DNA of 64,000 nucleotides from Candidatus Versatilivorator sp. (GCA_965207735.1 OZ242296.1:662723-726722); one strand, 5' to 3'. Positions 1,548 through 60,417 are shown, numbered from the stretch's first letter. Numbers and translations: made by a program. Notes: generated from the sequence alone by a model not told the origin.

Positions 1548-3527
1548 TTAGACCCGCTGGGTGGTCTTGATGGCTTCCAGAACGTCTCGATCTTTCTCCA
1601 GGATGGCAGGGTTGTCGTTGCAGCAACTACCGGACGCGGCTGAGTCCTGTATCACCGGCAGTGTCAGGCGGTGCTGGGTTGTCTCAAGGGGAACTTTCTT
1701 GCCCTTGGCGAAGATGTCATGTCTCCCCCGGGTCTTGTGCCATTCCGCCAGGCTGGCCGTTTGGTGCATGTTTTCGATGATCTGCCTCCAGCCGACCCCG
1801 GTGTTGTAGGCGCAGAAGGAAATCTCTCCCTCCTGGGTGCCGTAGGGAATGACGCACATCTCGGTGCGGCGGAAATCGTAGGTCCACAGATCCTGAAACC
1901 ACATACCCTCCACGCACAATACCCGCCAGTCATCCAAGTCGCTACGGGTCTTCATGCGGTCGTTGCGGTCGCTGTCCGACCTCGCCGAGCTTGGCTTGAA
2001 CAGGTTGACGATTTGAGAGATCGGAAAACCCCGGGGAGCCAGGTCGGCTTTGAAATTGCGCAGAATGGCCAGAGCCAATTGGGCTCCGGTCAAGGCCTTT
2101 CCGCGAGCGGTGTCGGTAATGACCGCCACGTCCCGGATGAACTGCTCGTAGTCAAAGAACTTGAACAGGGGCGTCCATTCGCGGGTACGGCGGTTGACCA
2201 CCAGCAGGCTGAAGATACCGCAGTTGGGGTGGCAGTTGCAGGCGCTCCATCCCCAGGAGGCGTCCGCCCCTTGCAGCAGATCCATCACGCTGGTGAAGGC
2301 GCTGTAGGAAGACAGGGGAAACCAGTCTCTCAGGGGCTGCCAGTCGGCGGACAACTGGCCCTTGAGGTCCTGGGTCATTTGAGACAGGGTGTAGCGTTGG
2401 GCGTATCGCGTGCTGTCTTCGACGTCTTCATCCCGACCGGTGAAGGACACGGGTTGGAAGGCGATGGTTTGAATCTTGTCGACGTTGCGGGCTGCAAAAT
2501 CGACGATGGACCCGATTCCCTGGTTGTTGACGCCGTTGACGATGGTGGTCACCAAAGTGGTTTTCATGCCCACCTTGGCCATGTTCTCGATGGACTGCAA
2601 CTTGACGTCGAACAGATTGCCGACGCCGCGGTGACTGTTACTCTCTTCGCAGGTGCCGTCGAACTGCAGGTAGGCTCCGTGAAGTCCCGCCTCATGGGCC
2701 TGCCGGGTGAACTCCTCGCTCTGTGCGAAGCGAATCCCGTTGGTGGCCGCCAGAACCCGATAGAATCCGATCTTCTTGGCGTAGGCGACGGCTTCGATGA
2801 AGAATGGGGAGAGGGTGGGTTCTCCTCCGGAGAAAAGGATGATCACCTGACGACGTGGCTTGTAGGAGACGGCACGGTCCAGAATGGCCTTGATGTCTTC
2901 AAACTCCGGTTGATGAACATAGCCAACCTGATTGGCATCCATGAAGCAGGGATTGCACATCATGTTGCATCGGTTGGTCAAATCCACCGTCAGCACAGCG
3001 CCGCGTCCGAACTTGATGCTGGAGTTCCCATGGCGATGGACGTGGTCATCTTCGGAGCAACGGAAATCCCGCCCGAAGAAGAGGCCTTCGATTCGACGGG
3101 TAAATTCGGGGTCGGTGGAGAGCACATCTTCGAAAGGCCCGTGCTTGTCGCACACCTTGCGCATGATCACCTTGCCGCCCTCTTCCAGAATCTGGGCCTT
3201 GATTTCACCCGGGTGCCCGGACATCAGGGTGGAGAGGTCGGCTTCGCCGTTAATGATGGCATTGCGAACCTCGGGCACGCAGCGCGGACACAAGGAGTCG
3301 GTGGTCCTGGGGAATCCCAGGGTAGGAGCCGAGCGTTCGTGGCTCTTGAGCATCTTGCCTGGAGCCCAGCTGGGAGTCGGGAGCTTTCCCTCCGGGAAGC
3401 TTCGATTGACGGCCTGGAAAGTCTTCCAGGTCAGATCGGCTACACCAGAGAGAAAAGACGAACCCGAAAACTGGTGCCACCAGCTTCGGTTGCGACCATC
3501 TCTAAACATGTGGTCTGTGTACATCAA
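1548..3527 (-). CDS. Radical SAM protein, 659 aa, with Cys-rich N- and C-terminal extensions; candidate tetraether-lipid-synthase (Tes/GDGT-MAS)-like enzyme
   Basis: Canonical CxxxCxxC (TNRCNMMCNPCF) at about aa 186 followed by a GGEPTL SAM-binding motif. N-terminal CPRC and C-terminal CNCHPNC...C...C...CC clusters suggest auxiliary Fe-S sites. No B12-binding domain. Confidence 0.75.
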   Translation of the reverse strand: MMYTDHMFRDGRNRSWWHQFSGSSFLSGVADLTWKTFQAVNRSFPEGKLPTPSWAPGKMLKSHERSAPTLGFPRTTDSLCPRCVPEVRNAIINGEADLSTLMSGHPGEIKAQILEEGGKVIMRKVCDKHGPFEDVLSTDPEFTRRIEGLFFGRDFRCSEDDHVHRHGNSSIKFGRGAVLTVDLTNRCNMMCNPCFMDANQVGYVHQPEFEDIKAILDRAVSYKPRRQVIILFSGGEPTLSPFFIEAVAYAKKIGFYRVLAATNGIRFAQSEEFTRQAHEAGLHGAYLQFDGTCEESNSHRGVGNLFDVKLQSIENMAKVGMKTTLVTTIVNGVNNQGIGSIVDFAARNVDKIQTIAFQPVSFTGRDEDVEDSTRYAQRYTLSQMTQDLKGQLSADWQPLRDWFPLSSYSAFTSVMDLLQGADASWGWSACNCHPNCGIFSLLVVNRRTREWTPLFKFFDYEQFIRDVAVITDTARGKALTGAQLALAILRNFKADLAPRGFPISQIVNLFKPSSARSDSDRNDRMKTRSDLDDWRVLCVEGMWFQDLWTYDFRRTEMCVIPYGTQEGEISFCAYNTGVGWRQIIENMHQTASLAEWHKTRGRHDIFAKGKKVPLETTQHRLTLPVIQDSAASGSCCNDNPAILEKDRDVLEAIKTTQRV

Positions 3528-3735
3528 TGCCTCCGAGACTGAGGGAATTGAGACCGCACACTACCAAGGCAGGATGGTAAGGGCCGTAACCGAATCACAG
3601 GCCTTTGGTTACCCGCCTCAAGGTACCAATTTCAGGGTGGCGGTGTCCAGGAAAAACTGTCTACGGAAAACTCCCCCGGGGAAGCCCGCAAGGCCACGGC
3701 GGGATTGCAGGTTGCCTGGTTGCGATTCTTGGGAG

Positions 3736-3811
3736 TGGAGCCGACGAGCGGGATTGAACCGCTGACCTGTCGATTACGAATCGACCGCTCTACCAGCTGA
3801 GCTACGTCGGC
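3736..3811 (-). tRNA. tRNA-Thr (anticodon CGT), CCA encoded
   Basis: Reverse complement GCCGACGTAGCTCAGCTGGTAGAGCGGTCGATTCGTAATCGACAGGTCAGCGGTTCAATCCCGCTCGTCGGCTCCA folds as a cloverleaf with a GTTCAATCC T-arm. Anticodon loop is TTCGTAA. Confidence 0.85.
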
Positions 3812-3837
3812 CTGAGCCGTCAGCGCTCGCCAACACA

Positions 3838-3872
3838 AGAAAATGCCCATCCCGGGGGATGGGCATTTCAAA
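3838..3872 (-). terminator. Perfect 12-13 bp hairpin AAATGCCCATCCC-GGGGGATGGGCATTT followed on the minus strand by TTTTCTTGT; intrinsic-terminator-like
   Basis: Inverted repeat read directly. A U-tract is present only in the minus-strand sense. No obvious upstream minus-strand gene, so its function is uncertain. Confidence 0.3.
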
Positions 3873-4073
3873 GAGGAGAGGGTTGACAAAAGAGTCAATA
3901 CCCACCGTATCGGCTACTATAGTGAGGTGGCCGCTGACTGTCAAGCCGATTTTCGAAATAAATGGATGGAGCGCGGAACCGAAGAATATTTTTAGGTCAC
4001 GTATTGTTGTCTATGGTTTAAATGGCTTAGTGGAGGCCAGCATTCAGTTATCTTGCGCTATGAAGATTGAGTC

Positions 4074-4652
4074 ATGACCCGGTTCGAGCAGGAAAAGTGG
4101 CAAGCCAGGTACGCCTCATTGCCCTCCGGCCCACTGCCCCTTAAACCTGCGGCTCGCTGGCTTCACCGGTGGGAAGGGGTCATTCCGCCAGGACGGGTAG
4201 TCGATCTGGCCGTTGGCCTGGGAGGGAACGCCTTTCACCTGGCGGGCCGGGGGGCCTCGGTGCTGGGGATCGATGTCTCGGAAAGGGCGGCCAGGGCACT
4301 GCGCCGGACGGCCTTGGACCGTGGCTTAAGGCTTGAGTTGCTCGTCGCCGATTTGGATGTTTTCCCGCTGCCGCCGAACCGCTTTGATGCGATCCTTTGC
4401 TTTTTCTATCTCAATCGACGGCTCTTTCCCCAAATCAGGAGCAGCCTCAACCCTGGGGGTGTCCTGCTGATGGAGGCTTTCGTGACCGATCCGCAACGGC
4501 CGGAAAAGGATCAACCCGGCTACCGGCTGGCCGAGAGGGAACTGCTGGCGGCCTTCGATGATTGGGAAATTCTCGACTATGCCGAGGGCATCCAGCGGGG
4601 AGTTGGCCCCTCGCAGGTGGCTACCGCCCGCATTTGCGCCAGGAAACCCTAG
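4074..4652 (+). CDS. Class I SAM-dependent methyltransferase (TehB-like fold)
   Basis: VVDLAVGLGGNAFHLAGRGASVLGIDVS (motif I) plus a DAILCFFYL motif. Its TAG stop codon is the CTAG abutting the IS1182-like element. Confidence 0.65.
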   Translation: MTRFEQEKWQARYASLPSGPLPLKPAARWLHRWEGVIPPGRVVDLAVGLGGNAFHLAGRGASVLGIDVSERAARALRRTALDRGLRLELLVADLDVFPLPPNRFDAILCFFYLNRRLFPQIRSSLNPGGVLLMEAFVTDPQRPEKDQPGYRLAERELLAAFDDWEILDYAEGIQRGVGPSQVATARICARKP

Positions 4653-6232
4653 GAGTCTGCGCCGCAGAAAACCCAGGCAGGGCTGAATGATAGAATAACG
4701 GGCTTAGAGAGATCATGGGAGGTGGTGAATGGGGACGAGGTTTCGCCCGTATGAACCGAAGCAGTTGTTGATGCTGCCGCCGGACCTGCGGGAGTGGGTA
4801 CCGGAAGGACACTTGGCGCATCAGGTGAGCGAGTTGGTGGATGGGCTGGAGTTGGGAGCGTTCTACCGGCGGTATGAAGAGGACGGGAGGCGCAACTCGC
4901 CCTATGAGCCGGGGATGATGGTGAAGGTATTGATCTACGCCTATGCGACGGGGGTGTTCTCGTCGCGCAAGATTGCCAGGAAGCTGGAGGAGGACGTGGC
5001 GTTTCGGATGCTGGCGGCGGGGAACTTTCCGCAGCATCGGACGCTGTGCGAGTTTCGCCGGCGGCACTTGAAGGACTTCAAGCGGCTGTTGGTGCAAGTG
5101 GTGCGTTTGGCGCGGGAGATGGGGATGGTGGGGTTGGGGCGATTGGGGATCGACGGGACGAAGGTGCGGGCGAACGCGAGCCGGCGCAAGGCGATGAGCT
5201 ATGGTCGGATGAAGGAGCGGGAGCGGCAACTGAAGGCAGAGATCCATGAGTTGTTGAAGAAGGCGCGGCGGGAGGACCGGGAGGAAGATGAGCGGTACGG
5301 GGAAGACCGGCGTGGGGATGAGTTGCCCGAGGAGTTGCGGCGGCGGGAGGACCGGCTGGCGGCGATCGAGGCGGCCAAGCAGCGGCTGGAGGCGGCCCAG
5401 CGGGAGGCCGATGAGGAGCGGGGGCGCAAACCGGGACAGGACCGCAACCCGAAAGCACGACGGCCCTACAAGCGGGCCTACGGAGAACCGGAGGAGAAGG
5501 CGCAGAGTAATTTCACCGATCCGGAAAGCCGGATCATGAAGACTTCCACCGAGGGGTTCCAGCAATGCTACAACGCGCAGGTGGCGGTGGACGGAGAGCA
5601 CCAGATCATTGTGGCCACCGAGGTAACGGCGCAGGCGAGCGATCAGGGGCAGATGATGGAGTTGCTGGAGGAGGTGGAGGAGAGCTTCCAGGAGATACCG
5701 AAACAGGTGCTGGCGGATGCGGGCTACTGCAATGAGGCGGACTTGCAGGCCCTGGAAGAGAGAGGAGTGGACGGTTATGTTGCGCTGGGGCGCGAGGGGA
5801 AGCGGGCGGTAGAGATCGATCCCAGGAAGCATCCGGCCAAGAGTCGTATGAGGAAGAAGCTGGCCAGCCTAGCCGGTCAGGTGGAGTATCGGCGGAGGAA
5901 GTGGATTGCCGAAGCCCCTCATGGGTGGATCAAGGAGGGGCTGGGATTCCGACGGTTCAGTCTGCGGGGCTTGCAATCAGTGCAGGGGGAGTGGGACTTG
6001 GTGTGTCTGGCCCTCAACATCAAGAGGATGAGTGCGCTGATGGCAGCCTGAAGCAAGGGATTTCCACCCAATACCCAGGACCACGGAGGTCCTCAACCGC
6101 CCATTGTGGGAGCCCACAGGGCCCTTGAGACTCTATCAACGCCCAAGCGGCTCCCAAGCACTCCTTGGAACCGGCCTTGCGCAGTAGCCTCTCGCTCTTG
6201 AACTTTCCGAAATCGTCCTGCGGCGCAGACTC
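4653..6232 (+). mobile_element. IS1182-like (IS5 superfamily) insertion sequence, copy 1, with 15-bp perfect TIR GAGTCTGCGCCGCAG and flanked by CTAG on both sides
   Basis: The terminal inverted repeat is read at both ends. The internal sequence is nearly identical to the inverted copy at 12905-14474. CTAG sits at 4649-4652 and 6233-6236. Confidence 0.8.
4729..6051 (+). CDS. IS1182-family DDE transposase (440 aa)
   Basis: N-terminal MGTRFRPYEPKQLLMLPPDLREWVPEGHLA signature of IS1182-group transposases, a coiled-coil Arg/Glu-rich linker and a C-terminal DDE region (VLADAGY). A second copy at 13086-14408 differs by a few residues. Confidence 0.85.
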   Translation: MGTRFRPYEPKQLLMLPPDLREWVPEGHLAHQVSELVDGLELGAFYRRYEEDGRRNSPYEPGMMVKVLIYAYATGVFSSRKIARKLEEDVAFRMLAAGNFPQHRTLCEFRRRHLKDFKRLLVQVVRLAREMGMVGLGRLGIDGTKVRANASRRKAMSYGRMKERERQLKAEIHELLKKARREDREEDERYGEDRRGDELPEELRRREDRLAAIEAAKQRLEAAQREADEERGRKPGQDRNPKARRPYKRAYGEPEEKAQSNFTDPESRIMKTSTEGFQQCYNAQVAVDGEHQIIVATEVTAQASDQGQMMELLEEVEESFQEIPKQVLADAGYCNEADLQALEERGVDGYVALGREGKRAVEIDPRKHPAKSRMRKKLASLAGQVEYRRRKWIAEAPHGWIKEGLGFRRFSLRGLQSVQGEWDLVCLALNIKRMSALMAA

Positions 6233-6236
6233 CTAG

Positions 6237-6490
6237 CCCGCATTTTTCACCAGGGGGCATGATCATGGCGCAGGGTTTTTCCCTTCGACGCGTGCTCGCG
6301 ACCGAAGAGCGTAGCGGTCACTACGCGCGAGGGAGCATGTGCGCGCTGAAGGGAAAAAGACAAGCCAGGGCATGCCCAGCGCCGTCTGTTACCCACAAGC
6401 CCTTACAATGGAGCCAATCAACGTACTGAAGACGTACTGAAGATAAACTGCTTTTCGGCATGGCAACAGCGACCTGGTGAGAAATGCGGG
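6237..6490. repeat. 254-bp transposase-less derivative of the IS1380-family element with TIR CCCGCATTT(C/T)TCACCAGG, flanked by CTAG
   Basis: Left end CCCGCATTTTTCACCAGG and right end CAGCGACCTGGTGAGAAATGCGGG. The subterminal 120 bp match the 3' part of the element at 14479-15488 and of 60221-60341. Confidence 0.7.
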
Positions 6491-6540
6491 CTAGCCCGAT
6501 GCCGTCGGGCCTTTGACGATGCGCGGGACTTTGGGGGTGG

Positions 6541-6927
6541 TCAAAGCAGTTGGATCGGCCCTGGGTAGCGCGCGACGACTTCGTCCGCCGTCAAAAGCGT
6601 AAGCCCTTCGATCTGGGCCTGCGCGATCAAGATGCGGTCGAACGGGTCCTTATGTATGGGTGGAAGCAGATCCACGGCCGCCGCGTGAGCGCCGCTTACC
6701 GGCAATTCCACATAACCGTTCTCCAGCAACCCCCGGCGCAGCAGGCGCGGGTCGGCCCTGAACTCCTCTCGCCCGAGCCCCCTCTTGATGGCTACCTCCC
6801 AAATCGAAGCGGCGCTATAGACCAACTCGTTCTCCGGATCTTCTATCAGCGCACGCGCATCGGCCGACAATTGACGCGACGCGCCCGCTGCCCAAAGTAA
6901 AACATGTGTGTCGAGAAGGAGATTCAA
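6541..6927 (-). CDS. vapC: PIN-domain ribonuclease toxin VapC
   Basis: MNLLLDTHVLLWAAG...ASIWEVAIKRGLGR...LLTAD has the PIN acidic residues. Overlaps the upstream antitoxin by 4 nt (ATGA). Confidence 0.8.
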   Translation of the reverse strand: MNLLLDTHVLLWAAGASRQLSADARALIEDPENELVYSAASIWEVAIKRGLGREEFRADPRLLRRGLLENGYVELPVSGAHAAAVDLLPPIHKDPFDRILIAQAQIEGLTLLTADEVVARYPGPIQLL

Positions 6928-7169
6928 CCGTCACCTTCGAACAGGGCTTCGATCTCTTCGGAGCCCATGCGGTCGAAATCCTTGGGCACCGAGATTTTTC
7001 CGGCCATGAATCCGACCCGACGGGTGGCCCCGGGCCCCGGCGCTTCCACGGCGACGACTTTGACGACGGGCTTGCCCGCGCGCGCAATAATGAACGGCTC
7101 GCCATTTGCGGCTGCCTCGACGAGACGTGAGAGATGGGTCTTGGCTTCGTGCATGTTGAATGTACGCAT
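6924..7169 (-). CDS. Phd/YefM-family antitoxin (VapB-type partner)
   Basis: 81 aa starting MRTFNMHEAKTHLSRLVEAAANGEPFIIARAGKPVVKVV, typical of Phd/YefM. Translationally coupled to vapC. Confidence 0.75.
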   Translation of the reverse strand: MRTFNMHEAKTHLSRLVEAAANGEPFIIARAGKPVVKVVAVEAPGPGATRRVGFMAGKISVPKDFDRMGSEEIEALFEGDG

Positions 7170-7389
7170 GACCTGACTCCTTGAGCTTAGTCTATATAAC
7201 TTAGTTCATCATGACAAGCTCCCACAACCGCCGTCTTGGATTGTCAATGAACACGAATAGGGATGGTAAGGTGGAGCGTATCCGGCGGGCAACTTCTCTG
7301 AAAGCCGACCAGCGCCTTTTGGGAAACTCCCGTTTGTCCGCTTTCTTGATTTCGAGTCTTGACGATCCGGAGTTGATCCCCCTGGCGTC

Positions 7390-8300
7390 GCGTTGACCGG
7401 ATGTAGGCAGATAGCGCGGAACTTGTGCGACACGTTCGGGAGTCAACGCCTTGCAGGCTTTCAGTGTTCTGCTCTTTTTGTGTTTTTGTGCCTTTTGTGG
7501 CCATTCCCGGCAAGGGTCCCGCTGCTGAATTTTGCAAAAGGCTCGAGAGTGAAACAATCGGAAATCGACAATCCCTTCGTGAACTTGGAACCCCGTCGCG
7601 GCCAACCTCAGCGCCTTAGTGGCCCTTCGTCGTTCTTCGTGCCCCTTCGTGGATAAGTCTTTTGTCTTTTTTAGGTTGTTTCAGACAAGTCCCGCCTCCG
7701 CCGTGCCAGGCGGATCATTCAGAGGAGAAACAGCCAGCTGTTTGCGTTTTGGAAAGAGACAGGATTAATAGGACCAGAGGCCGCTGCACGGGACGCTGAC
7801 TGGGAATCGGGGCGTTGGGCACGGCCAAGGCCCGCCACGGGGAAGATCAATCGAGAAGGACTAAGAATTGAACATGGATGCACAGAATGCACAGGATTGA
7901 CAGGACGAGAGCTTCCTGCACCAGAAGCCAACTCGGGCCATGATCCGGTGCGGATTTGCGGATTCCCGGCAGTAGAAGCCAGCCGTTTCCTGAAGAATCC
8001 TGCGAATCCTGTGCATCGATGTTAATGATCTCCTTAAATCACGATGGGGTCGGAAGCCCCCCACTGGCTCGGCCGCGGTCCTTGTTGCTTCTTCGCGGAC
8101 AAATCCTCTTTGTCCCTTGTGTCCTTTGTTGACCCCCTTGCCGACCTTCGCCCCATCCCTCTTGGGCCTTCTCCAGCGCCTTGGTGTTCCTTCGTCGTTC
8201 TTCGTGCCCCTTCGTGGAAATGTCTTTTTCTTTTGTCTTTTTAGGTTGTTTCAGACAAGCCTCTTCCACAGAGGCCTTCCGATGCGATATTTTGAGGCGG
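7390..8300. repeat. Composite non-coding repeat cluster 1: sub-repeats A (CTTTTTGTGTTTTTGTGCCTTTTGTGG), B (GAGTGAAACAATCGGAAATCGAC...CCTTCGTCGTTCTTCGTGCCCCTTCGTGGA...TTTTGTCTTTTTTAGGTTGTTTCAGACAAG, present twice) and C (about 170-bp unit with TIR-like ends GAACATGGATGCACAGAAT...ATCCTGTGCATCGATGTTAAT)
   Basis: All three sub-repeats recur in the same combination at 57850-58900, with A inverted there. The ORF-track 'proteins' across them (..PSSFFVPLRG..) are repeat translations. Confidence 0.6.
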
Positions 8301-12904: not shown

Positions 12905-14474
12905 GAGTCTGCGCCGCAGGACGATTTCGGAAAGTTCAAGAGCGAGAGGCTACTGCGCAAGGCCGGTTCCAAGGAGTGCTTGGGAGCCGCTTGGGCGTTG
13001 ATAGAGTCTCAAGAGCCCTGTGGGCTCCCACAATGGGCGGTTGAGGACCTCCGTGGTCCTGGGTATTGGGTGGAAATCCCTTGCTTCAGGCTGCCATCAG
13101 CGCACTCATCCTCTTGATGTTGAGGGCCAGACACACCAAGTCCCACTCCCCCTGCACTGACTGCAAGCCCCGCAGACTGAACCGTCGGAATCCCAGCCCC
13201 TCCTTGATCCACCCATGAGGGGCTTCGGCAATCCACTTCCTCCGCCGATACTCCACCTGACCGGCTAGGCTGGCCAGCTTCTTCCTCATACGACTCTTGG
13301 CCGGATGCTTCCTGGGATCGATCTCTACCGCCCGCTTCCCCTCGCGCCCCAGCGCAACATAACCGTCCACTCCTCTCTCTTCCAGGGCCTGCAAGTCCGC
13401 CTCATTGCAGTAGCCCGCATCCGCCAGCACCTGTTTCGGTATCTCCTGGAAGCTCTCCTCCACCTCCTCCAGCAACTCCATCATCTGCCCCTGATCGCTC
13501 GCCTGCGCCGTTACCTCGGTGGCCACAATGATCTGGTGCTCTCCGTCCACCGCCACCTGCGCGTTGTAGCATTGCTGGAACCCCTCGGTGGAAGTCTTCA
13601 TGATCCGGCTTTCCGGATCGGTGAAATTACTCTGCGCCTTCTCCTCCGGTTCTCCGTAGGCCCGCTTGTAGGGCCGTCGTGCTTTCGGGTTGCGGTCCTG
13701 TCCCGGTTTGCGCCCCCGCTCCTCATCGGCCTCCCGCTGGGCCGCCTCCAGCCGCTGCTTGGCCGCCTCGATCGCCGCCAGCCGGTCCTCCCGCCGACGC
13801 AACTCCTCGGGCAACTCGTCCCCACGCCGGTCTTCCCCGTAGCGCTCATCTTCCTCCCGGTCCTCCCGCCGCGCCTGCTTCAACAACTCTTCGATCTCTT
13901 CCCTCAGTTGCCGCTCCCGCTCCCGCATCCGACCGTAGCTCATCGCCTTGCGCCGGCTCGCGTTCGCCCGCACCTTCGTCCCGTCGATCCCCAATCGCCC
14001 CAACCCCACCATCCCCATCTCCCGCGCCAAACGCACCACTTGCACCAACAGCCGCTTGAAGTCCTTCAAGTGCCGCCGGCGAAACTCGCACAGCGTCCGA
14101 TGCTGCGGAAAGTTCCCCGCCGCCAGCATCCGAAACGCCACGTCCTCCTCCAGCTTCCTGGCAATCTTGCGCGACGAGAACACCCCCGTCGCATAGGCGT
14201 AGATCAATACCTTCACCATCATCCCCGGCTCATAGGGCGAGTTGCGCCTCCCGTCCTCTTCATACCGCCGGTAGAACGCTCCCAACTCCAGCCCATCCAC
14301 CAACTCGCTCACCTGATGCGCCAAGTGTCCTTCCGGTACCCACTCCCGCAGGTCCGGCGGCAGCATCAACAACTGCTTCGGTTCATACGGGCGAAACCTC
14401 GTCCCCATTCACCACCTCCCATGATCTCTCTAAGCCCGTTATTCTATCATTCAGCCCTGCCTGGGTTTTCTGCG
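12905..14474 (-). mobile_element. IS1182-like insertion sequence, copy 2 (inverted relative to copy 1), flanked by CTAG on both sides
   Basis: Reverse complement is nearly identical to 4653-6232 and carries the same TIR GAGTCTGCGCCGCAG. CTAG at 12901-12904 and 14475-14478. Confidence 0.8.
13086..14408 (-). CDS. IS1182-family DDE transposase (440 aa), copy 2
   Basis: Identical to the 4729-6051 product except for about 5 substitutions in the coiled-coil linker (MRERERQLREEIEELLKQ vs MKERERQLKAEIHELLKK). Confidence 0.85.
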   Translation of the reverse strand: MGTRFRPYEPKQLLMLPPDLREWVPEGHLAHQVSELVDGLELGAFYRRYEEDGRRNSPYEPGMMVKVLIYAYATGVFSSRKIARKLEEDVAFRMLAAGNFPQHRTLCEFRRRHLKDFKRLLVQVVRLAREMGMVGLGRLGIDGTKVRANASRRKAMSYGRMRERERQLREEIEELLKQARREDREEDERYGEDRRGDELPEELRRREDRLAAIEAAKQRLEAAQREADEERGRKPGQDRNPKARRPYKRAYGEPEEKAQSNFTDPESRIMKTSTEGFQQCYNAQVAVDGEHQIIVATEVTAQASDQGQMMELLEEVEESFQEIPKQVLADAGYCNEADLQALEERGVDGYVALGREGKRAVEIDPRKHPAKSRMRKKLASLAGQVEYRRRKWIAEAPHGWIKEGLGFRRFSLRGLQSVQGEWDLVCLALNIKRMSALMAA

Positions 14475-14478
14475 GCGC

Positions 14479-15488
14479 AGACTCCTAGCCCGCATTTCTC
14501 AGTGCGCCATGGAAAGGCGCCTTCTTCCAACGGGTGCGAAACCCGTCCAACAACTGTCGCTCCGGTTGGTAGCAGCCAGGGCGGATCATGGAGGTAACGA
14601 TATGGTCTGAAGCCCTCTGGTGTCAAAGGGCCGCTTAAGGCGGTTCAGCGAGCATGCGGGCCGGAACGCGAGTGAACGTCGAGCAGGCCTCGAAACGGGC
14701 AATGCGGGGGCCGACCCACCTGAGAAATGGGGAAGGCCGAAGACGGAGGGGGAAGCGAGCGACGCGGGCACCCCTTTGGACCCGCCGGGGTAGTGGCGCT
14801 GGCACGCATGGAAGGGGAAGAAGGCAGCAACATGGGAAGCCCTGTGGGTGGTGAGGCACGCACCGAACCGGAAGCTCGCGAGAGTCAGTCTAGGCCGACA
14901 GGGTGGCGGAGAGGCCTGTAGTACCGGAGAAGCCGGGTAATACCGGTGGAGGGAAGGGGCCTCAGGTGAGGAGCGGTGACCGAAGGGGGAAGGGTCCCGG
15001 GAGTGGCGAAAGCCTGAAACCCCGACCAAAAAAGGGCCGGAGACTCCGGAAGCATCACATGCAAAAGTGAAAGGGTCGTCGGAGGAGGACGGCGTCGTCA
15101 GGGCATCAACAGGCCTGGCGGCAACCCGGGAGCGGAAGTGGATGGAGTGGGGGACGGGTGCCAATCCCATAGGAGTCGTCCACGGATGCGAGCGGGGACC
15201 TGTGTGCGAGACGCATGATCCCACTGGAGAGCCGAGATGCGGGAAAACCGCACGTCCGGTTCGGAGAGCGGGGACTGGAAACGTGATAAGGGAGCCGGAC
15301 TGAGGCCCGAAGCGAAAGCGACGGAATAGCCACCGGACCCTATAGTCAACGCGCCAGTCCTCGACTCTACCCAAGGGGCATGCCCAGAGCTGTCTGTTAC
15401 CCGCAAGCCCTTACCAGAGAGCCAATCAAAGTACTGAAGATAAACTACTTTTCGTCATGGCACCAGCGACCTGGCGAGAAATGCGGGC
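14479..15488. repeat. IS1380-type transposase-less element (same TIRs as 6237-6490) carrying an ORF-less group II intron inserted in its left TIR
   Basis: Left TIR CCCGCATTTCTCA is interrupted, then continues CCAAGGGGCATGCCCAG. The right 120 bp match the short element at 6237-6490 and end ...CAGCGACCTGGCGAGAAATGCGGG. Confidence 0.7.
14492..15371 (+). ncRNA. ORF-less group II intron (about 880 nt), copy 1
   Basis: 5' end GUGCG lies immediately after the exon sequence ...CCCGCATTTCTCA. ATGCGGG (14701-14707) and TGAGAAATG (14720-14728) are exact complements of IBS2 CCCGCAT and IBS1 CATTTCTCA. Domain V GAGCCGAGAUGCGGGAAAACCGCACGUCCGGUUC (about 15247-15280) has the AGC triad, G-U wobble, AC bulge and GAAA loop. 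The 3' end is ...CUCUAC and is followed by a CCA exon. No ORF spans more than a few dozen codons on this strand. Confidence 0.75.
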
Positions 15489-16972
15489 TAAGCGGGCCCG
15501 TGTCCCGCGGGCAGGCTGGATCCAGCCAGGGGAATCGAGACCAGAAAAGATGTTCCTCGGCCAACCTGGCTTTCCACGGCAATGGTGCCCGCGTGGTCGT
15601 CGATGATCTTTTTGGTAATCGACATTCCCAAGCCGAACCCCGTCGGCTTGCCTTGGGTGAAGAAGGGCTGGAAGAGGGTGGCTTGAGCGTGGGCGGGAAT
15701 GCCGCCGCCATTGTCGGTGAGCCGGATGCAGGCTTGATCCTCCCGGGTTTCGGTGCGAATCGAGAAGGTGCCTCCACCCTTGAGCGCATCCTTGGCATTG
15801 ACCGCGATATTCAGCAGAGCCCGCCTGAATTTGTCCTTGTCGACGGTGACCCGGGCATCGCAGTTGAACTCCCGAACAAAACGGGTGCCCTTGCCTTGGA
15901 ACAGGGCCTGGATCTCAATGCAGCAATTCTTCAGAACCTGATCGAGGCTGCAGGTTTCCGGCGACATGCAGGTCTTCTTGTCGTTGGCGAACTGCAGGAT
16001 CTCGTCCAGCATCCGTTCCATGCGCTCGACCTCGAAGTGGATGAATGCCAGGCATTCCTGCTTTTTGTCAGCCGACAGGTCGAAGTCACTCATGACGGAA
16101 GCAAAACCCTTGATGACGGTGATGGGCGTTCGGCAGTCGTGGACGATGGTATTGACCATGGTGCCGACCGCCGCCAGCTTTTCCGTCTTGATTCGTTCCT
16201 CCTGACTCTGCCTGATGCGGTCCATCATGTGGTTGAAGTGGTTGGCCAGTCCCTCCAGCTCGTCACCCGTCTTGACTTGAATTCGGTGAGAAAGGTCGCC
16301 CGCGGAGGCCTTCAAGGCTCCGCCGACTATGGTGGAAACGGGGACTGTGATCCGGTTGGCCAAGATACAGGCGCCCACAATTCCCGTCACCGCGGCCGCC
16401 AGGCCCACCTGCAGGATGACGAGCTGTATTTCCCATACCTGCTGATTCATGCCGTCGGTCGAGAAGCCCAGGCGGACCGTTCCCCAACGTCCCGGAGACT
16501 CGGGCGACAGAACCGGGACCGTGAAATCCAAGACCGGGTCGAAAGAAGAAACCTTGCTTGGGGCGAATCGGAGTCGACGAATGAGGGGTTTGCGGGCCTG
16601 CAGGGATTGCCGGGCCTCGGCTCCCGTTGGATGGGTGTCGATCAGGGAACTGTCTTCGGAATGGGCTGCCACCTTGCCTTCCTTGTCATAGACGATGACA
16701 TAGAGGAGGTCGCTTTCCCCTCGAGCCAGCCGTGCGTTGACTTGGAGCATGCGGTAGTTGTAGGTCTGCAGATGGGTCAAGTTTGCTCCGCTGGCGAAGA
16801 TTCGGGCGATGGCGATCCCGCGCTGCCGGGTGTGGTCGCGAATGACTTGGTGCATGCGGTGACTCAGCAAACCAATTGCCGGCAGGAGGACCGAAGCAAG
16901 TAAGAGGACCGTAGCCGATATCAACTTCGTCCTCAGGTTGATTCGGGAAAAAGCGCGCATGTAGGCCTCCAA
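15488..16972 (-). CDS. Sensor histidine kinase (HAMP-HisKA-HATPase_c)
   Basis: Two TM segments with a periplasmic region, HAMP, H-box IVHDCRTPITVIKGF and N/G1/G2 boxes (NAKDAL, DNGGGIP, GFGLGM). Its TAG stop lies in the terminal CTAAGC of the adjacent IS1380-type repeat element. Confidence 0.8.
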   Translation of the reverse strand: MEAYMRAFSRINLRTKLISATVLLLASVLLPAIGLLSHRMHQVIRDHTRQRGIAIARIFASGANLTHLQTYNYRMLQVNARLARGESDLLYVIVYDKEGKVAAHSEDSSLIDTHPTGAEARQSLQARKPLIRRLRFAPSKVSSFDPVLDFTVPVLSPESPGRWGTVRLGFSTDGMNQQVWEIQLVILQVGLAAAVTGIVGACILANRITVPVSTIVGGALKASAGDLSHRIQVKTGDELEGLANHFNHMMDRIRQSQEERIKTEKLAAVGTMVNTIVHDCRTPITVIKGFASVMSDFDLSADKKQECLAFIHFEVERMERMLDEILQFANDKKTCMSPETCSLDQVLKNCCIEIQALFQGKGTRFVREFNCDARVTVDKDKFRRALLNIAVNAKDALKGGGTFSIRTETREDQACIRLTDNGGGIPAHAQATLFQPFFTQGKPTGFGLGMSITKKIIDDHAGTIAVESQVGRGTSFLVSIPLAGSSLPAGHGPA

Positions 16973-26603: not shown

Positions 26604-27613
26604 TTATCGATTAAACCGTGACGATTGCCCTGCTTCCTCCAGGAAGGTGGCGGTGCGCAGGTAGTTTCCGTCGCTACGGATGGTGACGGCCCCCTGTCGG
26701 TCGGTGCGGAACAATTGCACGGGAAGTGTCTTCAAACGGCGAACCACCTCGGGGTGAGGATGGCCGAAGGGGTTGACCTTACCCGCCGAAATAACGGCAA
26801 GCACCGGATTGACCCGGTTCAGGAAGAGTAAGGAGGATGAGGTCCAGCTTCCATGGTGGGCTACCTTCAAGACATCGGCTTGGAGGCCACGTCCGAGGGC
26901 TGCCAGGCATTCCTCGACCGGCTCCTCGATATCACCGGTCAACAAGAAGGACCTGCGCCCGAAGGTCATTCTCAAAACCAGGGAATCGTTGTTGAGATTT
27001 CCGTCGGAGGGGCCGCAACCCGGATTGAGAAATTCCAGTCCGGCCCCATGAACATTGAGCGTGTCCCCGGCTTGAAAAGCTCGGATCCTGAGGCCGCGTG
27101 CTTCCGCCTTTTTGAGCAGTGCGAGCAGATCGGGGGAAACGGGGCCGTTTCCAAGCCAGAATTCCTTGACCTCGAAGTTGTCCAGAATAAACCCCAGACC
27201 TCCCATATGGTCCTGGTGGGCATGGGTCAGGATCACCGCTTCCAGCGATCGGACGCCGCGGCTCCGGAGATAAGGCGCGACCACCTGCTCACCGACGTCA
27301 AAAGCGGACCCCACGATCTCGGATCGGTGGCCGGCCCCGGACCAACTGCCACCGCCATCGACCAGAGTGTGCCCGCCGTTCGGCCAGCCTACCAGGATGC
27401 TGTCTCCTTGCCGCACATCCAGAAACGTCAAACTCATCTCCTGCGATCCGGATTTGACCCCTTGTCCGCCTGAAAGCAGGACCGTCAGGGATGCCAGCCA
27501 GATGACGGCGCCGGACAGCCTCAGGAGGCGAGGGACTCTTGTGGCGACCCACAGGGCCAGGGAGCCGTAGTAGGCCAACACCCAGGCCAGGGGAACCTGG
27601 GGCAGGGAAAAGC
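26604..27613 (-). pseudogene. comEC: comEC, C-terminal metallo-beta-lactamase fragment; gene split by IS insertion
   Basis: HAHQDHMGG MBL motif in a ComEC/Rec2-type domain. The ORF-track N-terminus (MLPTSGEKCGLGFS) is read from the IS terminal repeat. After removing the insertion (27618-30188, 2571 bp, a multiple of 3), the reading frame is continuous with 30189-31787. Confidence 0.7.
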
Positions 27614-27712
27614 CTAGCCCGCATTTCTCACCAGAGGTAGGAAGCATCGGTTCTCGGAATCTGGTAAAATACTCTTGTCTAAGGAGTTAACCAGATTCTT
27701 AAAGGAGAACCG

Positions 27713-29080
27713 ATGCCGACACAGTGTAACACCAAACCCCTGGAGTTTGAACCCCACGGCCGCCGCCGCGTGGTGGCTGATTTCGACGGCGGTCCCATCA
27801 CTTCCGATGCCGGCTCCCTGCTGTTGCGCCGGGTGGATCGGGGCTTATCTCTCTCCGACCAGGTGGCCGACTGTTTCACCGATCACCGCGACCCCAAGCG
27901 GACCCAATACAGCCTGCGCACCCTCATCGCTCAGCGCATCCGTGGCATCGCCCTCGGCTACGAGGATCTCATCGACCACGACCAACTCCGTCACGATCCC
28001 CTCATGGCCTTGTTTTCAGAGAAAGGCCGTCGTGGCGACTCGCCTCCCCTGGCAGGCAAGAGCACCCTCAACCGACTCGAACACGCCCCCACCCAAGGCC
28101 CCACCCGCTACCACAAGATTGACCACGACCCCGAGGCCTTGCAAGCCCTCCTGGTGAAACTGTTTCTGCAAGCCCATCCCCAACCCCCCGATGAGATCAT
28201 CCTCGACCTCGACGCCACTGACGATCCCCTCCACGGGGAACAAGAGGACCGCTTCTTCCACGGCTACTACCGAGGCTACTGCTACCTGCCCCTCTACATC
28301 TTCTCGGGCCGCCATCTGCTCTCGGCCCTGCTCAGACCCGCCAACATCGATGCCTCCGCCGGCGCTCTGGAGCAGGTCCAGCGCATCGTCTCCCGCCTAC
28401 GGCGTGTCTGGCCTCAGGTCAAGATCCTGCTGCGGGCCGACTCCGGCTTTGCCCGTGAGGAGCTGATGGGGTGGTGTGAGCAGCATCAGGTCGACTATCT
28501 CTTCGGCCTGGCCCGCAACTCCCGCCTCCAAGACGCCATCGCCCCCGAGTTGGCTCAGGCCCAGGCCCTCTCAGACCAGCAACAGCAGCCCGCCCGGATC
28601 TTCACCGACCTCTCCTACCGCACTCACAAGAGCTGGTCCCACGAGCGCCGCCTGGTCGCCAAAGCCGAGGTCCTGCCCCGCGGCCCCAACCCCCGCTTCG
28701 TCGTCACCTCTCTGTCGGTCCAGGACTACCCCGCCCAGTTCCTCTATGAGAAGATCTACTGTGCCCGCGGTGAGATGGAAAACCGCATCAAGGAGCAGCA
28801 ACTCGACCTGTTTGCCGATCGCACCTCCACCCACTCCTTCCGGGCGAATCAGCTCCGGCTCCTGATGACCTCTTTCGCCTATGTGCTGGTGGAGGGCTTG
28901 CGCCGGCGGGCGCTGCAATCCACCTGCCTGGCCCGGGCCACCGTCGGTTCCATCAGACTCAAACTGCTCAAGATCGGCGCTCAGGTCACCATCTCGGTCC
29001 GTCGCATCAAGGTCGCCATGGCTTCCGGATGTCCTTACCAGAGGGAGTTCCGCATCGCTTGGGCTCACCTGCCGCCCTGA
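27713..29080 (+). CDS. IS1380-family DDE transposase (455 aa)
   Basis: Typical IS1380 architecture and motifs (ILDLDATDDPLHGEQE...LRADSGFA...CARGEMENRIKE...IRLKLLKIGAQV). Confidence 0.85.
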   Translation: MPTQCNTKPLEFEPHGRRRVVADFDGGPITSDAGSLLLRRVDRGLSLSDQVADCFTDHRDPKRTQYSLRTLIAQRIRGIALGYEDLIDHDQLRHDPLMALFSEKGRRGDSPPLAGKSTLNRLEHAPTQGPTRYHKIDHDPEALQALLVKLFLQAHPQPPDEIILDLDATDDPLHGEQEDRFFHGYYRGYCYLPLYIFSGRHLLSALLRPANIDASAGALEQVQRIVSRLRRVWPQVKILLRADSGFAREELMGWCEQHQVDYLFGLARNSRLQDAIAPELAQAQALSDQQQQPARIFTDLSYRTHKSWSHERRLVAKAEVLPRGPNPRFVVTSLSVQDYPAQFLYEKIYCARGEMENRIKEQQLDLFADRTSTHSFRANQLRLLMTSFAYVLVEGLRRRALQSTCLARATVGSIRLKLLKIGAQVTISVRRIKVAMASGCPYQREFRIAWAHLPP

Positions 29081-29302
29081 GGTGCCCTGACCCGACCGTC
29101 ACTCCTGGCCCTTGAAGACGCGGCCACCAGGCCCGATGGCAGAGGTGTCGCTGTTTTCGAGGGAAAATGCCGCCTGAGGTTCCTCGGAGAGCCTCAGAAG
29201 CCTCCGCTGTTGGCCTTTGCCTACCGATCCAGCCACCAACGTTGTTAAACTCGGCCTCAAATGCCTCCATGGCCCCTTTTACCGCTCCTGTGCGAACTCT
29301 GG

Positions 29303-30171
29303 GTAGAGTCGAGGACTGGCGCGTTGACTATAGGGTCCGGTGGCTATTCCGTCGCTTTCGCTTCGGGCCTCAGTCCGGCTCCCTTATCACGTTTCCAGTC
29401 CCCGCTCTCCGAACCGGACGTGCGGTTTTCCCGCATCTCGGCTCTCCAGTGGGATCATGCGTCTCGCACACAGGTCCCCGCTCGCATCCGTGGACGACTC
29501 CTATGGGATTGGCACCCGTCCCCCACTCCATCCACTTCCGCTCCCGGGTTGCCGCCAGGCCTGTTGATGCCCTGACGACGCCGTCCTCCTCCGACGACCC
29601 TTTCACTTTTGCATGTGATGCTTCCGGAGTCTCCGGCCCTTTTTTGGTCGGGGTTTCAGGCTTTCGCCACTCCCGGGACCCTTCCCCCTTCGGTCACCGC
29701 TCCTCACCTGAGGCCCCTTCCCTCCACCGGTATTACCCGGCTTCTCCGGTACTACAGGCCTCTCCGCCACCCTGTCGGCCTAGACTGACTCTCGCGAGCT
29801 TCCGGTTCGGTGCGTGCCTCACCACCCACAGGGCTTCCCATGTTGCTGCCTTCTTCCCCTTCCATGCGTGCCAGCGCCACTACCCCGGCGGGTCCAAAGG
29901 GGTGCCCGCGTCGCTCGCTTCCCCCTCCGTCTTCGGCCTTCCCCATTTCTCAGGTGGGTCGGCCCCCGCATTGCCCGTTTCGAGGCCTGCTCGACGTTCA
30001 CTCGCGTTCCGGCCCGCATGCTCGCTGAACCGCCTTAAGCGGCCCTTTGACACCAGAGGGCTTCAGACCATATCGTTACCTCCATGATCCGCCCTGGCTG
30101 CTACCAACCGGAGCGACAGTTGTTGGACGGGTTTCGCACCCGTTGGAAGAAGGCGCCTTTCCATGGCGCAC
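29303..30171 (-). ncRNA. ORF-less group II intron, copy 2, inserted in the right TIR of the IS1380-family IS
   Basis: Reverse complement is nearly identical to 14492-15371. The 5' exon ...CTAGCCCGCATTTCTCA|GUGCG is the same, and the 3' exon CCAGAGTTCGCACAGG is the IS terminal-repeat continuation. The proline-rich ORFs 29167-30087 (+) and 14586-15374 (-) are antisense artefacts of this element. Confidence 0.75.
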
Positions 30172-30188
30172 TGAGAAATGCGGGCTAG

Positions 30189-31787
30189 CCAGGGGATTGC
30201 GGAAAAAGCGCGGTTGAGGCTCAGAAGACCTTCAGCCAACAGGCCGGAGGTCCAACCGAGCAGCCAGGCGGTCTGCGGGGACAGACCGGCCCAGGCCAGA
30301 TAGGAAAATCCCAAGGGTATGATCATGGCGACCAGGGGAATGACCAGCACATTGAGGAAGATCACGGGCAGCACCACCCGGTGGAAATAGACCGTTAGCG
30401 GAATCAGGAGCACCGCCTGAATGGCGATGGAAACCAGGAAAATATCCACAAGGCCCAAGGCGAGCTTGTAGGGCCAGGCAATCAGACCGAGGCGGATGGC
30501 CGGTCGAGTAATGCCCACAAACTCCCCCAATCTGGAGCCGCGGAGTCGCAAGCCAACCCGCCAGGCGGCCAGTCGGGGGGGGAAGTTGCGATCCAGATGG
30601 ACGGATTCCAAAGACCCGAGAGCCTCCTTGTAAGGCTGAGTGGTGCGGCGCAGCAGAGGAAGGCCCATCGCGGCGATCGCCAGCGCGGCCGAGAAGGAGA
30701 GCTGGAACCCCGAGTCGTGCAGCCATCCGGGATTTTTCAGGAGAATCCACCAGGCCGCCAGGCACAAAGAGTGAAGCAGGTTGCGGTCCCGGTCGAAATA
30801 GAGAGCCGTCAGGAACAGACAACCCATGACCGAGGCTCGTTCAATGGCAACCTGTCCCTCGGCCACCAGGTTGTAAAGGGCGATCGCTCCCATGGTCAAG
30901 GTCAGGACCAACCAGCGTGGAAGCCCCAGTCGTTTGAGCAAGGCAAAGACCATGGCAATCATCATCCCGACATGCAGTCCCGAAACCACCAGTACGTGGT
31001 AGAGTCCGTTCAGTCGAAAACGGGACTCGGTTTCCTCCCCAAGGTCGCTGTCGTCTCCGAGCAGGACGGCTTTCAGAACGGCCCTGGCCGGGTCGGATGC
31101 CGGAAGCGCATCCAGTGCACGAAAACAGCCTTGTCGCATGCGGTTGCCAAGAGCCTGCCAGGACCATTCCTCTTGCCGGGTGAGACAGGTCAGCAGGAGC
31201 GGATCCTTCAAATTTCCAGTCAGGAAGATGCCCCGAAGTTCCAGGTAGGACCGGTAGTCGAACTGCCCCGGATTGTTGAAATTCTCCGGTCTTCGAAGAT
31301 AGGCAAGGAACTCGACCCGGTCGCCCGCCTGCGGGGGTGGCGAAGAGTCCAGAGCAATGTCCGGCGAGTTGAGGTGAAGCCGGATCTTTCCACGGGTCTC
31401 AAAGCCTGCGAACCGGTTTGCCAGGTGGTGGACTTCCACCTCCAGTCGGATGCCGTGGCCCTTTCCTTCCGAAACTCGAGCGCAAATTCCCCTCACCCGA
31501 CAGGGAGCCGTCAGGTCAAGCGCATCGGATCGGACCAGGGTTCGAAGGTGGTTGGGATCGAACTGGAGTTGGTGGATGGATGTCCAGGCCAATCCCGACA
31601 GGCCAAAGGCCAGGAGCAGGACGATCCGGCAGCTCCAGTCTCTGTCCTTGACCCAGAGAATCCATGAGAGGCACAGCGCCAGAGCACCGGCAGCCCATAG
31701 GAATTCCGGGGAGCTGGTGACCTGGGCATGAGCGGCAACACCCAGGCAGAAAGCCACCGTCGGCAACAGAAGTGGAGTGTGCAACAT
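30189..31787 (-). pseudogene. comEC: comEC, N-terminal fragment (DUF4131 plus competence/ComEC channel domain)
   Basis: Multi-TM protein containing RFRLNGLYHVLVVSGLHVGMM, the ComEC competence-domain signature. The ORF-track C-terminus runs into the IS/intron. Confidence 0.7.
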
Positions 31788-37515: not shown

Positions 37516-38335
37516 GGTTCAAGGCGGATTTCGAAATCTGCAGGCATGTGGTCTCGGAGCACAGCCTGGAGCGAGGCCTGCCGGATCCTAGGTCCGCCAA
37601 TCAACGAAGGGGAAAAAGACTCCCACCAAGGGGCACGTAGAAGCGCACAGGAAGACGAAGGGACTGATTGAGGGTTTGACTGTTGGAGGAGTCGGTGGGT
37701 TCAAAGGGACATGACTCGGCATGGCAGGACTCGATCGCCTGCAAAGAATCGCTGCAGCCGGGGGGCGGCCGTCACCAGACTCGATGGGGACAATTTCCTA
37801 ACGGTCCCGGAAACCTGTGGATCGAATGCGTCGAAACACCCAATAGGCGACCAACACCAGCCCTGCTGCCAGAACCCATTCGAAGTGAGCGTGAGGAATG
37901 TCATTGAGCGCGTGCGCCGTTAGAATCAGGGCCTTCATGGTTTGGTTTTCTCCGTTCTTCAAGTGAACCCGACCGAAAACCCATTATATATCGAGTTACA
38001 GTGGAAAGGGTTCATACCATTTTGGGTGGCTGTGAAAGACGCGCTTCAGAAAGAGTGGTCGTTTCCGGTCCTCCAGGCAGAACGGCCGATAAGATATCTT
38101 ATGTAAACTTTTATTAAAACGCGCAGACAGTGGGGTCAGCCGGGGAATTTTCGGGGAATCCGGGTTCCCTGCCGAGCGGGTCAGGTACCTCGCGAGAAGA
38201 TGCTGGAGATTAATCGACTTCGATAATGTATCCATCCACCCGGTGAGAAATGCGGGATAAAATGGAAATGGCTCGAGGTTGGTGGAATGCGCCAGCCGCT
38301 CCGATCAACGTTGAAACTGTTGCCAGGCGTTCGGA

Positions 38336-58900: not shown

Positions 58901-59019
58901 TGTTGTCCGTCAGCACGTTCCCGGTGAGGAATGCGGGCTCCCGCGTTGTGTTATGATTCGCTGAAGTTTCTGGACGCTGATTAGCCAGAGTTTGACCCCT
59001 TCGAGGTGGAACAGCCGTC

Positions 59020-60210: not shown

Positions 60211-60220
60211 CGGAGGCAAG

Positions 60221-60341
60221 CCCGCATTTCTCACAGGAGGGCGCACCCCGTGTAACCGAAAACCGTCCAATTGCACCAACAAGTTGTTGAAAACAAACGG
60301 TGGCTCCACGATTCATCCAGCGACCCGGCGAGAAGTGCGGG
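60221..60341. repeat. 121-bp miniature element with the IS1380-type TIRs (CCCGCATTTCTCACAGG ... CAGCGACCCGGCGAGAAGTGCGGG)
   Basis: Both TIR-like ends and the conserved subterminal CAGCGACC box are read directly. This is the third transposase-less derivative of the IS1380 element seen in the window. Confidence 0.6.
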
Positions 60342-60417
60342 CTATGCTGCTTCCCCGCCCTCCTTTGACCCCATTGACGACTCCTGACCGGTCGATACCC
60401 GGGAAGAAAGGAATGCC

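Follow-up and report, generated by a model that had tools for sequence, protein, structure and literature searches.

How do two identical introns that encode no protein come to occupy the same position in the ends of two different transposable elements? The question is raised by a 64,000-nucleotide (nt) stretch of DNA from Candidatus Versatilivorator sp. (GCA_965207735.1, OZ242296.1:662723-726722), the whole of which we refer to as the window and in which positions are counted from the first letter. Each of two group II introns lacking an open reading frame (ORF) lies inside a terminal inverted repeat (TIR), one belonging to a full insertion sequence (IS) and the other to a MITE (miniature inverted-repeat transposable element). 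We consider it very probable that these are intact, non-autonomous group II introns of an Acidobacteriota lineage that retrohome to TIRs with an intron-encoded protein (IEP) supplied in trans. The features concerned are collected in Table 1.

Both copies are 869 nt long and 100% identical, and in an Rfam scan of the whole window both score above the gathering thresholds of RF02003 (group II D1-D4-4, part of domain I; 80.8 bits against 49, E=4e-16) and RF00029 (domains V-VI; 41.2 bits against 40), in agreement with the group II identity proposed in a first-pass annotation of the sequence. As that annotation had described, each begins with GTGCG directly after CCCGCATTTCTCA and ends in CTCTAC followed by CCA, and GUGCG...CUAC are the ends expected of a group II intron (5' GUGYG, 3' AY). 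The junctions were set by comparison with empty sites: because intron-free TAGCCCGCATTTCTCA/CCAG sequences (the slash marks the insertion point) are present in the window at 6479 (-) and 27615 (+), the boundaries are fixed to the base. The coordinates first given for copy 2 were correct, and those for copy 1 move from 14492 to 14502 at the start and from 15371 to 15370 at the end.

The longest stop-free stretch on the sense strand of the intron is 107 aa, there is no IEP ORF in domain IV, and the IEP of relatives (see below) used as a tblastn query gave no match within the intron. No reverse transcriptase was found in the 64-kb window either by a scan for the YADD motif or by tblastn with the relatives' IEP (best E=1.5), so that both absences reported in the first-pass annotation stand. 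Both copies are ORF-less, structurally intact group II introns. Long antisense ORFs do run across them, at 14586-15374 (-) and 29167-30087 (+), encoding 262 and 306 aa; neither has a Pfam match, and because the intron strand is 63% purine we regard both as artefacts. Such spurious ORFs are likely to be annotated as hypothetical proteins, and a further consequence for annotation is that introns of this kind interrupt IS and MITE ends.

Table 1. Coordinates of the introns, their domains and recognition elements, and the host elements in the window
Feature	Coordinates	Strand	Remarks
Intron copy 1	14502..15370	+	869 nt, 5' GUGCG, 3' CUAC; Rfam RF02003 and RF00029, empty sites
5' exon of copy 1	14489..14501	+	Outer 13 nt of MITE TIR, CCCGCATTTCTCA; IBS1 UUUCUCA 14495-14501; candidate IBS2 GCCC 14488-14491
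Domain I	14507..14835	+	Intron 6-334; RNAalifold and covariation
EBS2 candidate GGGC	14697..14700	+	Intron 196-199, in an asymmetric internal loop; predicted partner exon GCCC, -14 to -11
ATGCGGG, EBS2 of the first-pass annotation	14702..14708	+	5' strand of domain I helix with 14781-14785 (CCCGC)
EBS1 UGAGAAA	14721..14727	+	Hairpin loop; pairs with IBS1 UUUCUCA; 30/30 covariation
Domain II	14839..14904	+	Intron 338-403; RNAalifold and covariation
Domain III	14911..14963	+	Intron 410-462; RNAalifold and covariation
Domain IV without ORF	14965..15225	+	Intron 464-724; sequence unrelated to ORF region of 2-kb relatives
Domain V	15229..15262	+	Intron 728-761; 34 nt, AGC triad; RF00029 alignment and covariation
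Domain VI	15265..15368	+	Intron 764-867; 104 nt; bulged branch-point A 15364, 7 nt from 3' end
Left MITE target duplication	14485..14488		CTAG, read from sequence; right copy CTAA 15488-15491
Rest of host MITE	15371..15487	+	MITE 130 bp without intron; right TIR 15475-15487
Intron-free MITE, same family, 254 bp	6237..6490		Both ends empty targets, one with IBS1 mismatch
Intron copy 2	29303..30171	-	100% identical to copy 1; EBS1 29952-29946, domain V 29444-29411, branch A 29309
5' exon of copy 2	30172..30184	-	Outer 13 nt of IS right TIR
IS1380-family element in comEC	27618..30184	+	1698 bp without intron; CTAG duplications 27614-27617 and 30185-30188
Left TIR of IS	27618..27636	+	CCCGCATTTCTCACCAGAG; unoccupied perfect intron target
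IS1380-family transposase, 455 aa	27713..29080	+	PF13701, NF033539

The first-pass expectation that the element folds into domains I-VI was borne out. RNAalifold applied to 19 ORF-less copies gives six domains, including a canonical domain V and a bulged branch-point A. Among 12 diverse relatives, domains I-III contain 128 predicted pairs, 24 of which have compensatory changes and almost none of which are broken, and in domains V-VI (8 sequences) 7 of 35 pairs are compensatory; for domain IV the fold is a prediction. Compensatory changes occur at three pairs of the basal helix of domain VI, and the unpaired branch A is invariant in all eight diverse relatives. Domain VI measures 104-120 nt in this lineage, three to four times the usual length, and carries an invariant GCGAAAGC hairpin in its distal part. 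Because of this unusual length, domain V lies 108 nt from the 3' end, and not about 90 nt as first estimated. Excluding domain IV, the ribozyme is about 640 nt, of which domain I contributes about 330 nt.

To identify the sequence with which the intron recognises its target, the domain I alignment was scanned against the exons of five target classes. A single position, intron 220-225, is complementary at 30 of 30 pairs, the next best position reaching 19 of 30. The exon-binding site 1 (EBS1) and intron-binding site 1 (IBS1) combinations are UGAGAA/UUCUCA, UGUUAA/UUAACA, UGUGUU/AACACA, UGUCUU/AAGACA and UGUAAU/AUUACA, and in two additional target classes the pairing includes G-U wobbles. With perfect covariation across the five classes we regard the EBS1-IBS1 pairing as established, as the first-pass annotation had proposed. 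That annotation placed EBS1 and EBS2 in two motifs 13 nt apart; both are present, TGAGAAATG at 14721-14729 and ATGCGGG at 14702-14708, with a spacing of 12 nt.

The assignment of EBS2 to ATGCGGG, by contrast, did not survive. The heptamer AUGCGGG (intron 201-207) is indeed complementary to exon positions -13 to -7, but it is present three times in the intron and forms one strand of a helix, intron 203-207/280-284, that has compensatory changes between GC and AU at two pairs (alignment columns 205:287, GC 6 and AU 5; columns 209:283, GC 6 and AU 6). The same GCGGG is found in two relatives (L045 and L046) despite their unrelated exons, and when domain I was scanned in a fixed register, none of its segments covaried with exon -7 to -13. 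We therefore reject AUGCGGG as a specific EBS2, and its match to the exon is probably coincidental. Also rejected, as it falls inside a covarying helix, was GAUGGG (intron 246-251), which is complementary to the CCCAUC of the IS1634-type exon (see below). In an unbiased scan of the distal exon the loop at intron 196-199, which has four different sequences across eight subfamilies, is an exact complement in six of the eight (GGGC, GGAU, GGAC and AUUU against exon GCCC, AUCC and AAAU), while the next window reaches four of eight. With moderate confidence we take the GGGC loop to be the best EBS2 candidate; RmInt2 has been reported to function with an EBS2 pairing of 4 bp (PMC4615759).

The sites at which the introns lie are ends of a transposon family well represented in the window, where the 15-nt TIR motif TAGCCCGCATTTCTC occurs 11 times at two or fewer mismatches, compared with 0.11 expected by chance. 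The host of copy 2 is a complete element. Its transposase matches PF13701 (E=8e-150) and NF033539 (410.6 bits against a cut-off of 180), and its inverted arms are at 27614-27630 and 30172-30188. It splits comEC into pieces at 26604-27647 and 30063-31787 (-), and removal of 27618-30188 restores a stop-free 897-aa comEC frame with Competence and metallo-beta-lactamase domains. Because the frame is restored by this deletion, the element can be delimited as 27618-30184 with a duplication of CTAG, which is thereby demonstrated for the full IS. Members of the IS1380 family (ISfinder) have a DDE transposase, a length of about 1.7 kb, TIRs starting CC and a target duplication of 4-5 bp; the host agrees in its transposase models, its 1698 bp, its 19-bp TIR CCCGCATTTCTCACCAGAG and its CTAG duplication. 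Copy 2 is inserted after base 13 of the right TIR and reads inward; relative to the transposase it is antisense, and relative to comEC it is in the sense orientation.

Copy 1 occupies the same position, 13 nt in, in one end of a transposase-less 130-bp MITE (14489-15487 with the intron), and its part at 15371-15487 can be aligned with the intron-free MITE at 6237-6490, over the right half of the latter. The first-pass view of the hosts as an IS1380-type TIR and a transposase-less derivative, both entered at one position, is thus confirmed. Its suggestion that the intron rides on every copy of the IS or its derivatives is not: two of six perfect targets are filled in the window, and 21 of 46 in related loci.

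Several features of these insertion sites were also noted. The CTAA at 15488-15491 overlaps the TAG stop of a sensor histidine kinase gene (15488-16972, -; HAMP, HisKA and HATPase domains), and the CTAG-type target of the IS1380-type family contains a stop codon. A 16-nt sequence, CTGCGGCGCAGACTCC, lies upstream of three different MITE copies (6218-6233 and 14470-14485 in the window, and one at L037), so the MITEs may favour this sequence for insertion, or it may belong to a longer composite repeat.

Relatives were sought with a degenerate domain V pattern over 185,579 species genomes, yielding 39 loci in five Acidobacteriota (Terriglobia) metagenome-assembled genomes, mainly of Candidatus Versatilivoraceae and Versatilivorator; judged by this distribution, the intron lineage is one of Acidobacteriota (Terriglobia; Candidatus Versatilivoraceae and relatives). 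By BLAST they take two forms, (a) about 30 ORF-less copies of 860-916 nt with 89-95% identity to the window intron, and (b) copies of 1998 nt in which intron 1-469 and domain V are matched at 85%. A metagenome scan with the 5' 25-mer of the intron matched one contig, L043. One related genome has about 13 ORF-less copies and 10 that encode an IEP (ORF+), and another about 14 ORF-less copies and no ORF+ copy detected.

Nearly all ORF-less copies are preceded by TA[AG]CCCGCATTTCTCA, with diverse sequences further upstream and in the 3' flanks, and they are found in both kinds of MITE end, in IS left ends (L003, L036) and, in the window, in an IS right end. Four introns in OZ240232.1 are 100% identical, yet a 200-nt comparison of their host MITEs gives only 76-90% identity; we conclude that the introns inserted recently and independently of one another and were not co-transposed with their hosts. 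No pair of loaded MITEs with near-identical host sequence was found among the relatives. These comparisons indicate recent independent retrohoming of ORF-less introns in related genomes, and the identity of introns in such diverged MITEs leads us to reject passive spread by MITE transposition as the main mode. The window repeats the pattern, since its identical introns occupy hosts unrelated to each other, one a MITE and one a full IS, and the two copies are independent insertions, as the first-pass annotation had concluded.

The ORF+ copies lie at the equivalent position, 13 nt in (after CCCATCTTTAACA), at either end of an IS1634-family element (NF033559, 280 bits). Four others (L018, L020, L032 and L041) have no transposase or inverted-repeat partner downstream and may represent ectopic sites; not every member of the clade, therefore, lies in an IS end. 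Among the unusual arrangements observed, two 1998-nt ORF+ introns abut each other head-to-tail, without a spacer (3437-5434 and 5435-7432), in one IS1634-type end at L008:3437-7432, and a single MITE at L019:298-2271 carries convergent ORF-less introns in both of its TIRs (311-1176, plus; 2258-1393, minus). An ORF-less copy at a non-TIR site, GCCTCCGCTTTCTCA/CGACC, in which IBS1 is kept, was seen at L023:6060-6925 and L038:225-1090. It is probably the product of ectopic retrotransposition, and the two loci may be one place in overlapping blocks.

A possible source for the enzyme is provided by the longer relatives. The 1998-nt introns code for a protein of 452 aa that has RVT_1 and GIIM domains (TIGR04416, 335 bits) but lacks an endonuclease domain, and among the relatives of about 2 kb the reverse transcriptase/maturase ranges from 446 to 452 aa. 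Contig L044, reached through an IEP that is 85% identical, contains a 1997-nt ORF+ intron that is 94-98% identical to the ORF-less form over domains I-III, with 94% in domain I. This intron has the same EBS1 as the window intron and the same target, CTAGCCCGCATTTCTCA/CCAGGG, and an ORF-less copy lies 1.9 kb downstream of it; the two forms also coexist in the related genome OZ240232.1. An IEP of the L044 type is accordingly the best candidate for a trans-acting enzyme, and mobilisation of the window introns in trans is plausible. The first-pass annotation had called for a protein encoded elsewhere, and IEP-coding relatives are now found in related genomes and metagenome contigs, with none in the window.

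The ORF-less form is not simply an ORF+ intron from which the coding region has been lost. Modules were compared between window 14502-15370 and L012, L013, L040, L044 and L005. Intron positions 470-700 are unlike any ORF+ relative, and domain VI is just about 70% identical, and we reject a simple ORF-deletion origin. All ORF-less copies have a common 3' module, with domains VI that are 96-99% identical to one another and about 70% identical to any ORF+ domain VI, whereas for the 5' module (domains I-III) two groups can be distinguished among them, each nearest to a different ORF+ lineage. The combination of one 3' module with two groups of 5' modules points to module exchange between ORF-less and ORF+ introns, and implies a mosaic family that would have arisen through recombination or template switching.

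In the reading that we favour, the 7-nt EBS1 in domain I would pair with UUUCUCA, bases 7-13 of the TIR common to the IS1380-family element and the MITEs, and the excised intron RNA would reverse-splice into DNA between ...CCCGCATTTCTCA and CCAG.... A reverse transcriptase/maturase of 446-452 aa without an endonuclease domain, encoded by a related 2-kb ORF+ intron, would then copy the intron to DNA in trans. Because the target lies inside an inverted repeat, every IS or MITE would offer two sites, one on each strand, and the two window copies would be separate retrohoming events, one at a MITE end and the other at the right end of the full IS in comEC. The introns would splice and move in vivo, with a predicted spliced junction CCCGCAUUUCUCA/CCAG, the IEP would act in trans, and this genome may still encode one. 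Some observations weigh against this. There is no IEP gene in the 64-kb window, four perfect targets in the window are unoccupied, and CBDAOQ010000003.1 and OZ253547.1 have ORF-less copies and no ORF+ copy by the domain V pattern used. In addition, the ORF-less domain IV has no similarity to the ORF+ domain IV, and domain IV is the usual highest-affinity binding site of the IEP. All but the last of these points would also suit immobile relics, descended from a single entry into an IS or MITE end and multiplied passively, as loaded elements transposed or TIRs recombined, with no current retrohoming. We consider this improbable in view of the 100% identical introns in unrelated hosts in the window, the four identical introns in diverged MITEs of OZ240232.1, and the lack of any loaded MITE pair near-identical in host sequence, which leaves no sign of loaded-element transposition. 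The flanking homology, 13 nt on one side and 6-20 nt on the other, would moreover be too short for efficient homologous recombination.

With no IEP nearby and all of the catalytic elements intact, the introns might alternatively be protein-independent, self-splicing ribozymes that need no IEP, for which C.te.I1 of Clostridium tetani provides a precedent; it is the only bacterial ORF-less intron that has been reported from a genome lacking any related IEP (PMC4424553). However, dozens of site-specific DNA insertions require a reverse transcriptase, and IEP-coding introns related to the ORF-less copies are found beside them in OZ240232.1 and on L044, making this account distinctly improbable. 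It is very improbable indeed that the introns have been recruited to a function, whether by splitting the 19-bp TIR after base 13 so as to disable or regulate transposase recognition, or by rendering the insertion harmless in the manner of an IStron. The TIR is interrupted by the intron and no loaded element has signs of later transposition, but partial occupancy, at either end and on either strand, is what would be expected of a selfish retroelement. Splicing would also take out the intron alone, so that the IS stays and comEC is still disrupted, which rules out an IStron-like rescue of comEC. An effect of the intron on transposase binding at the occupied end, raised in the first-pass annotation, is speculation.

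A broader picture can be drawn, although we hold it only tentatively and think it rather less likely than not to be right in full. The introns may form an Acidobacteriota clade of endonuclease-less introns specialised on the outermost 13-14 nt of the ends of DDE transposons, with the ORF-less members in IS1380 ends and MITEs and the ORF+ members at the homologous IS1634-family position, two changes in EBS1 sufficing to retarget them. The ORF-less introns might then constitute a lineage resembling short interspersed elements ('SINE-like') that retains a single 3' module, domains IV-VI, and has gained new targeting modules, domains I-III, again and again through recombination or template switching with autonomous introns, and that may cripple the occupied end by splitting its TIR.

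Elsewhere in the window, a second and unrelated DDE transposase (DUF772/DDE_Tnp_1, IS5-like) is located at 13086-14408 (-). Its start is about 80 nt from the intron-bearing MITE, so that mobile elements are clustered and nested in this region. Other TIR-like ends, of the IS and MITE families that host the introns or of related ones, are present at 1536-1550, 38245-38259, 58926-58940 and 60218-60344, the last being a 127-bp MITE; all four sites are intron-free, and two have a perfect 13-nt target. The window also contains a tRNA gene (3739-3811, -) and an Acido-Lenti-1 small RNA (58593-58638, +; 45.7 bits), the latter fitting an Acidobacteriota origin of the window.

The first-pass annotation regarded the nesting of an intron in a transposon end as unusual, but there are precedents, and bacterial group II introns are described as living in other mobile DNA (Dai and Zimmerly 2002, as cited in PMC4424553). 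The closest in its target is RmInt2 of Sinorhizobium meliloti GR4 (Toro laboratory, RNA Biol 2014), which homes into both inverted repeats of ISRm17; its authors pointed out that a site in an inverted repeat doubles the number of targets and ensures that one is on the lagging-strand template, and that head-to-tail copies form (PMC4615759). The present introns resemble RmInt2 in targeting IS inverted repeats with two sites on opposite strands, in an IEP (here that of the ORF+ relatives) without an endonuclease domain, in a candidate EBS2 pairing as short as that of RmInt2 (about 4 bp) and, at the relative L008, in head-to-tail tandems. They differ in that RmInt2 has its own IEP and belongs to bacterial class D, whereas the window intron is ORF-less, resides in an IS1380-family element and a MITE, and comes from Acidobacteriota. 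Nor does the lineage belong to class D. Its IEP is about 30-37% identical to rhizobial plasmid IEPs, and the class D C-terminal motif LX3AX3PXLF[V/A]HW (PMC4615759) is absent from its C-terminus, ...GLTCLASKPQGFPWAKA.

For the probable dependence on a relative's enzyme, the nearest parallel is the TeI3 family of Thermosynechococcus elongatus, in which ORF-less introns are mobilised in trans by the IEPs of relatives, divergence of the EBS sequences retargets the introns, and family F4 occupies a conserved site in ISEL1 (Mohr et al., PLoS Biol 2010, PMC2882425). Other ORF-less introns of bacteria are described as rare and as occurring in genomes with related IEPs (PMC4424553). Both systems are multi-copy ORF-less families that outnumber their ORF+ relatives, with EBS retargeting and residence in IS elements. 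The TeI3 introns, however, are simple deletion derivatives with ORF remnants, whereas here domain IV has no ORF remnant and a module of domains IV-VI is joined to different 5' modules, each nearest to another ORF+ lineage. Here, too, the target is the TIR itself, including that of MITEs, and the system is known from sequence alone. The Acidobacteriota lineage represents a second high-copy natural system, in a different phylum and with clean EBS1 retargeting.

Other comparisons are more partial. RmInt1 in ISRm2011-2 is likewise an endonuclease-less intron for which a repeated IS serves as a homing site that is safe and renews itself, but this intron is autonomous and lies in the transposase gene, not in the TIR. 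Of the few structures that have been solved, the nearest to the IEP of the lineage is the GsI-IIC reverse transcriptase (6ar1, E=6.5e-49), and group IIC and IIC-attC introns share with it the lack of an endonuclease domain and the targeting of sites in other mobile elements that serve recombination or are structural. Ribozymes of group IIC are small and without EBS2, pair with an IBS1 of 3-4 bp and insert just after a terminator or attC hairpin. The present ribozyme measures about 640 nt without domain IV, with a domain I of about 330 nt and an EBS1 of 6-7 bp, and its insertion site is internal to a TIR, at 13 nt from the end of the IS and not after a stem-loop, which excludes membership of group IIC. 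IStrons, which combine a group I intron with an IS200/IS605 element (PMC4227781), are also nested associations of a self-splicing intron with a DNA transposon; an IStron splices out as one unit, whereas here a separate retroelement sits in the IS end and the IS is left behind. The window intron combines known properties, a probable dependence on the enzyme of a relative and homing to the end-repeats of transposons, in a new lineage and phylum. Its most original points are the pattern of module exchange and the nesting of a non-autonomous retroelement in a non-autonomous DNA transposon, the MITE, an arrangement that allows one to ask whether an intron in a TIR blocks transposition.

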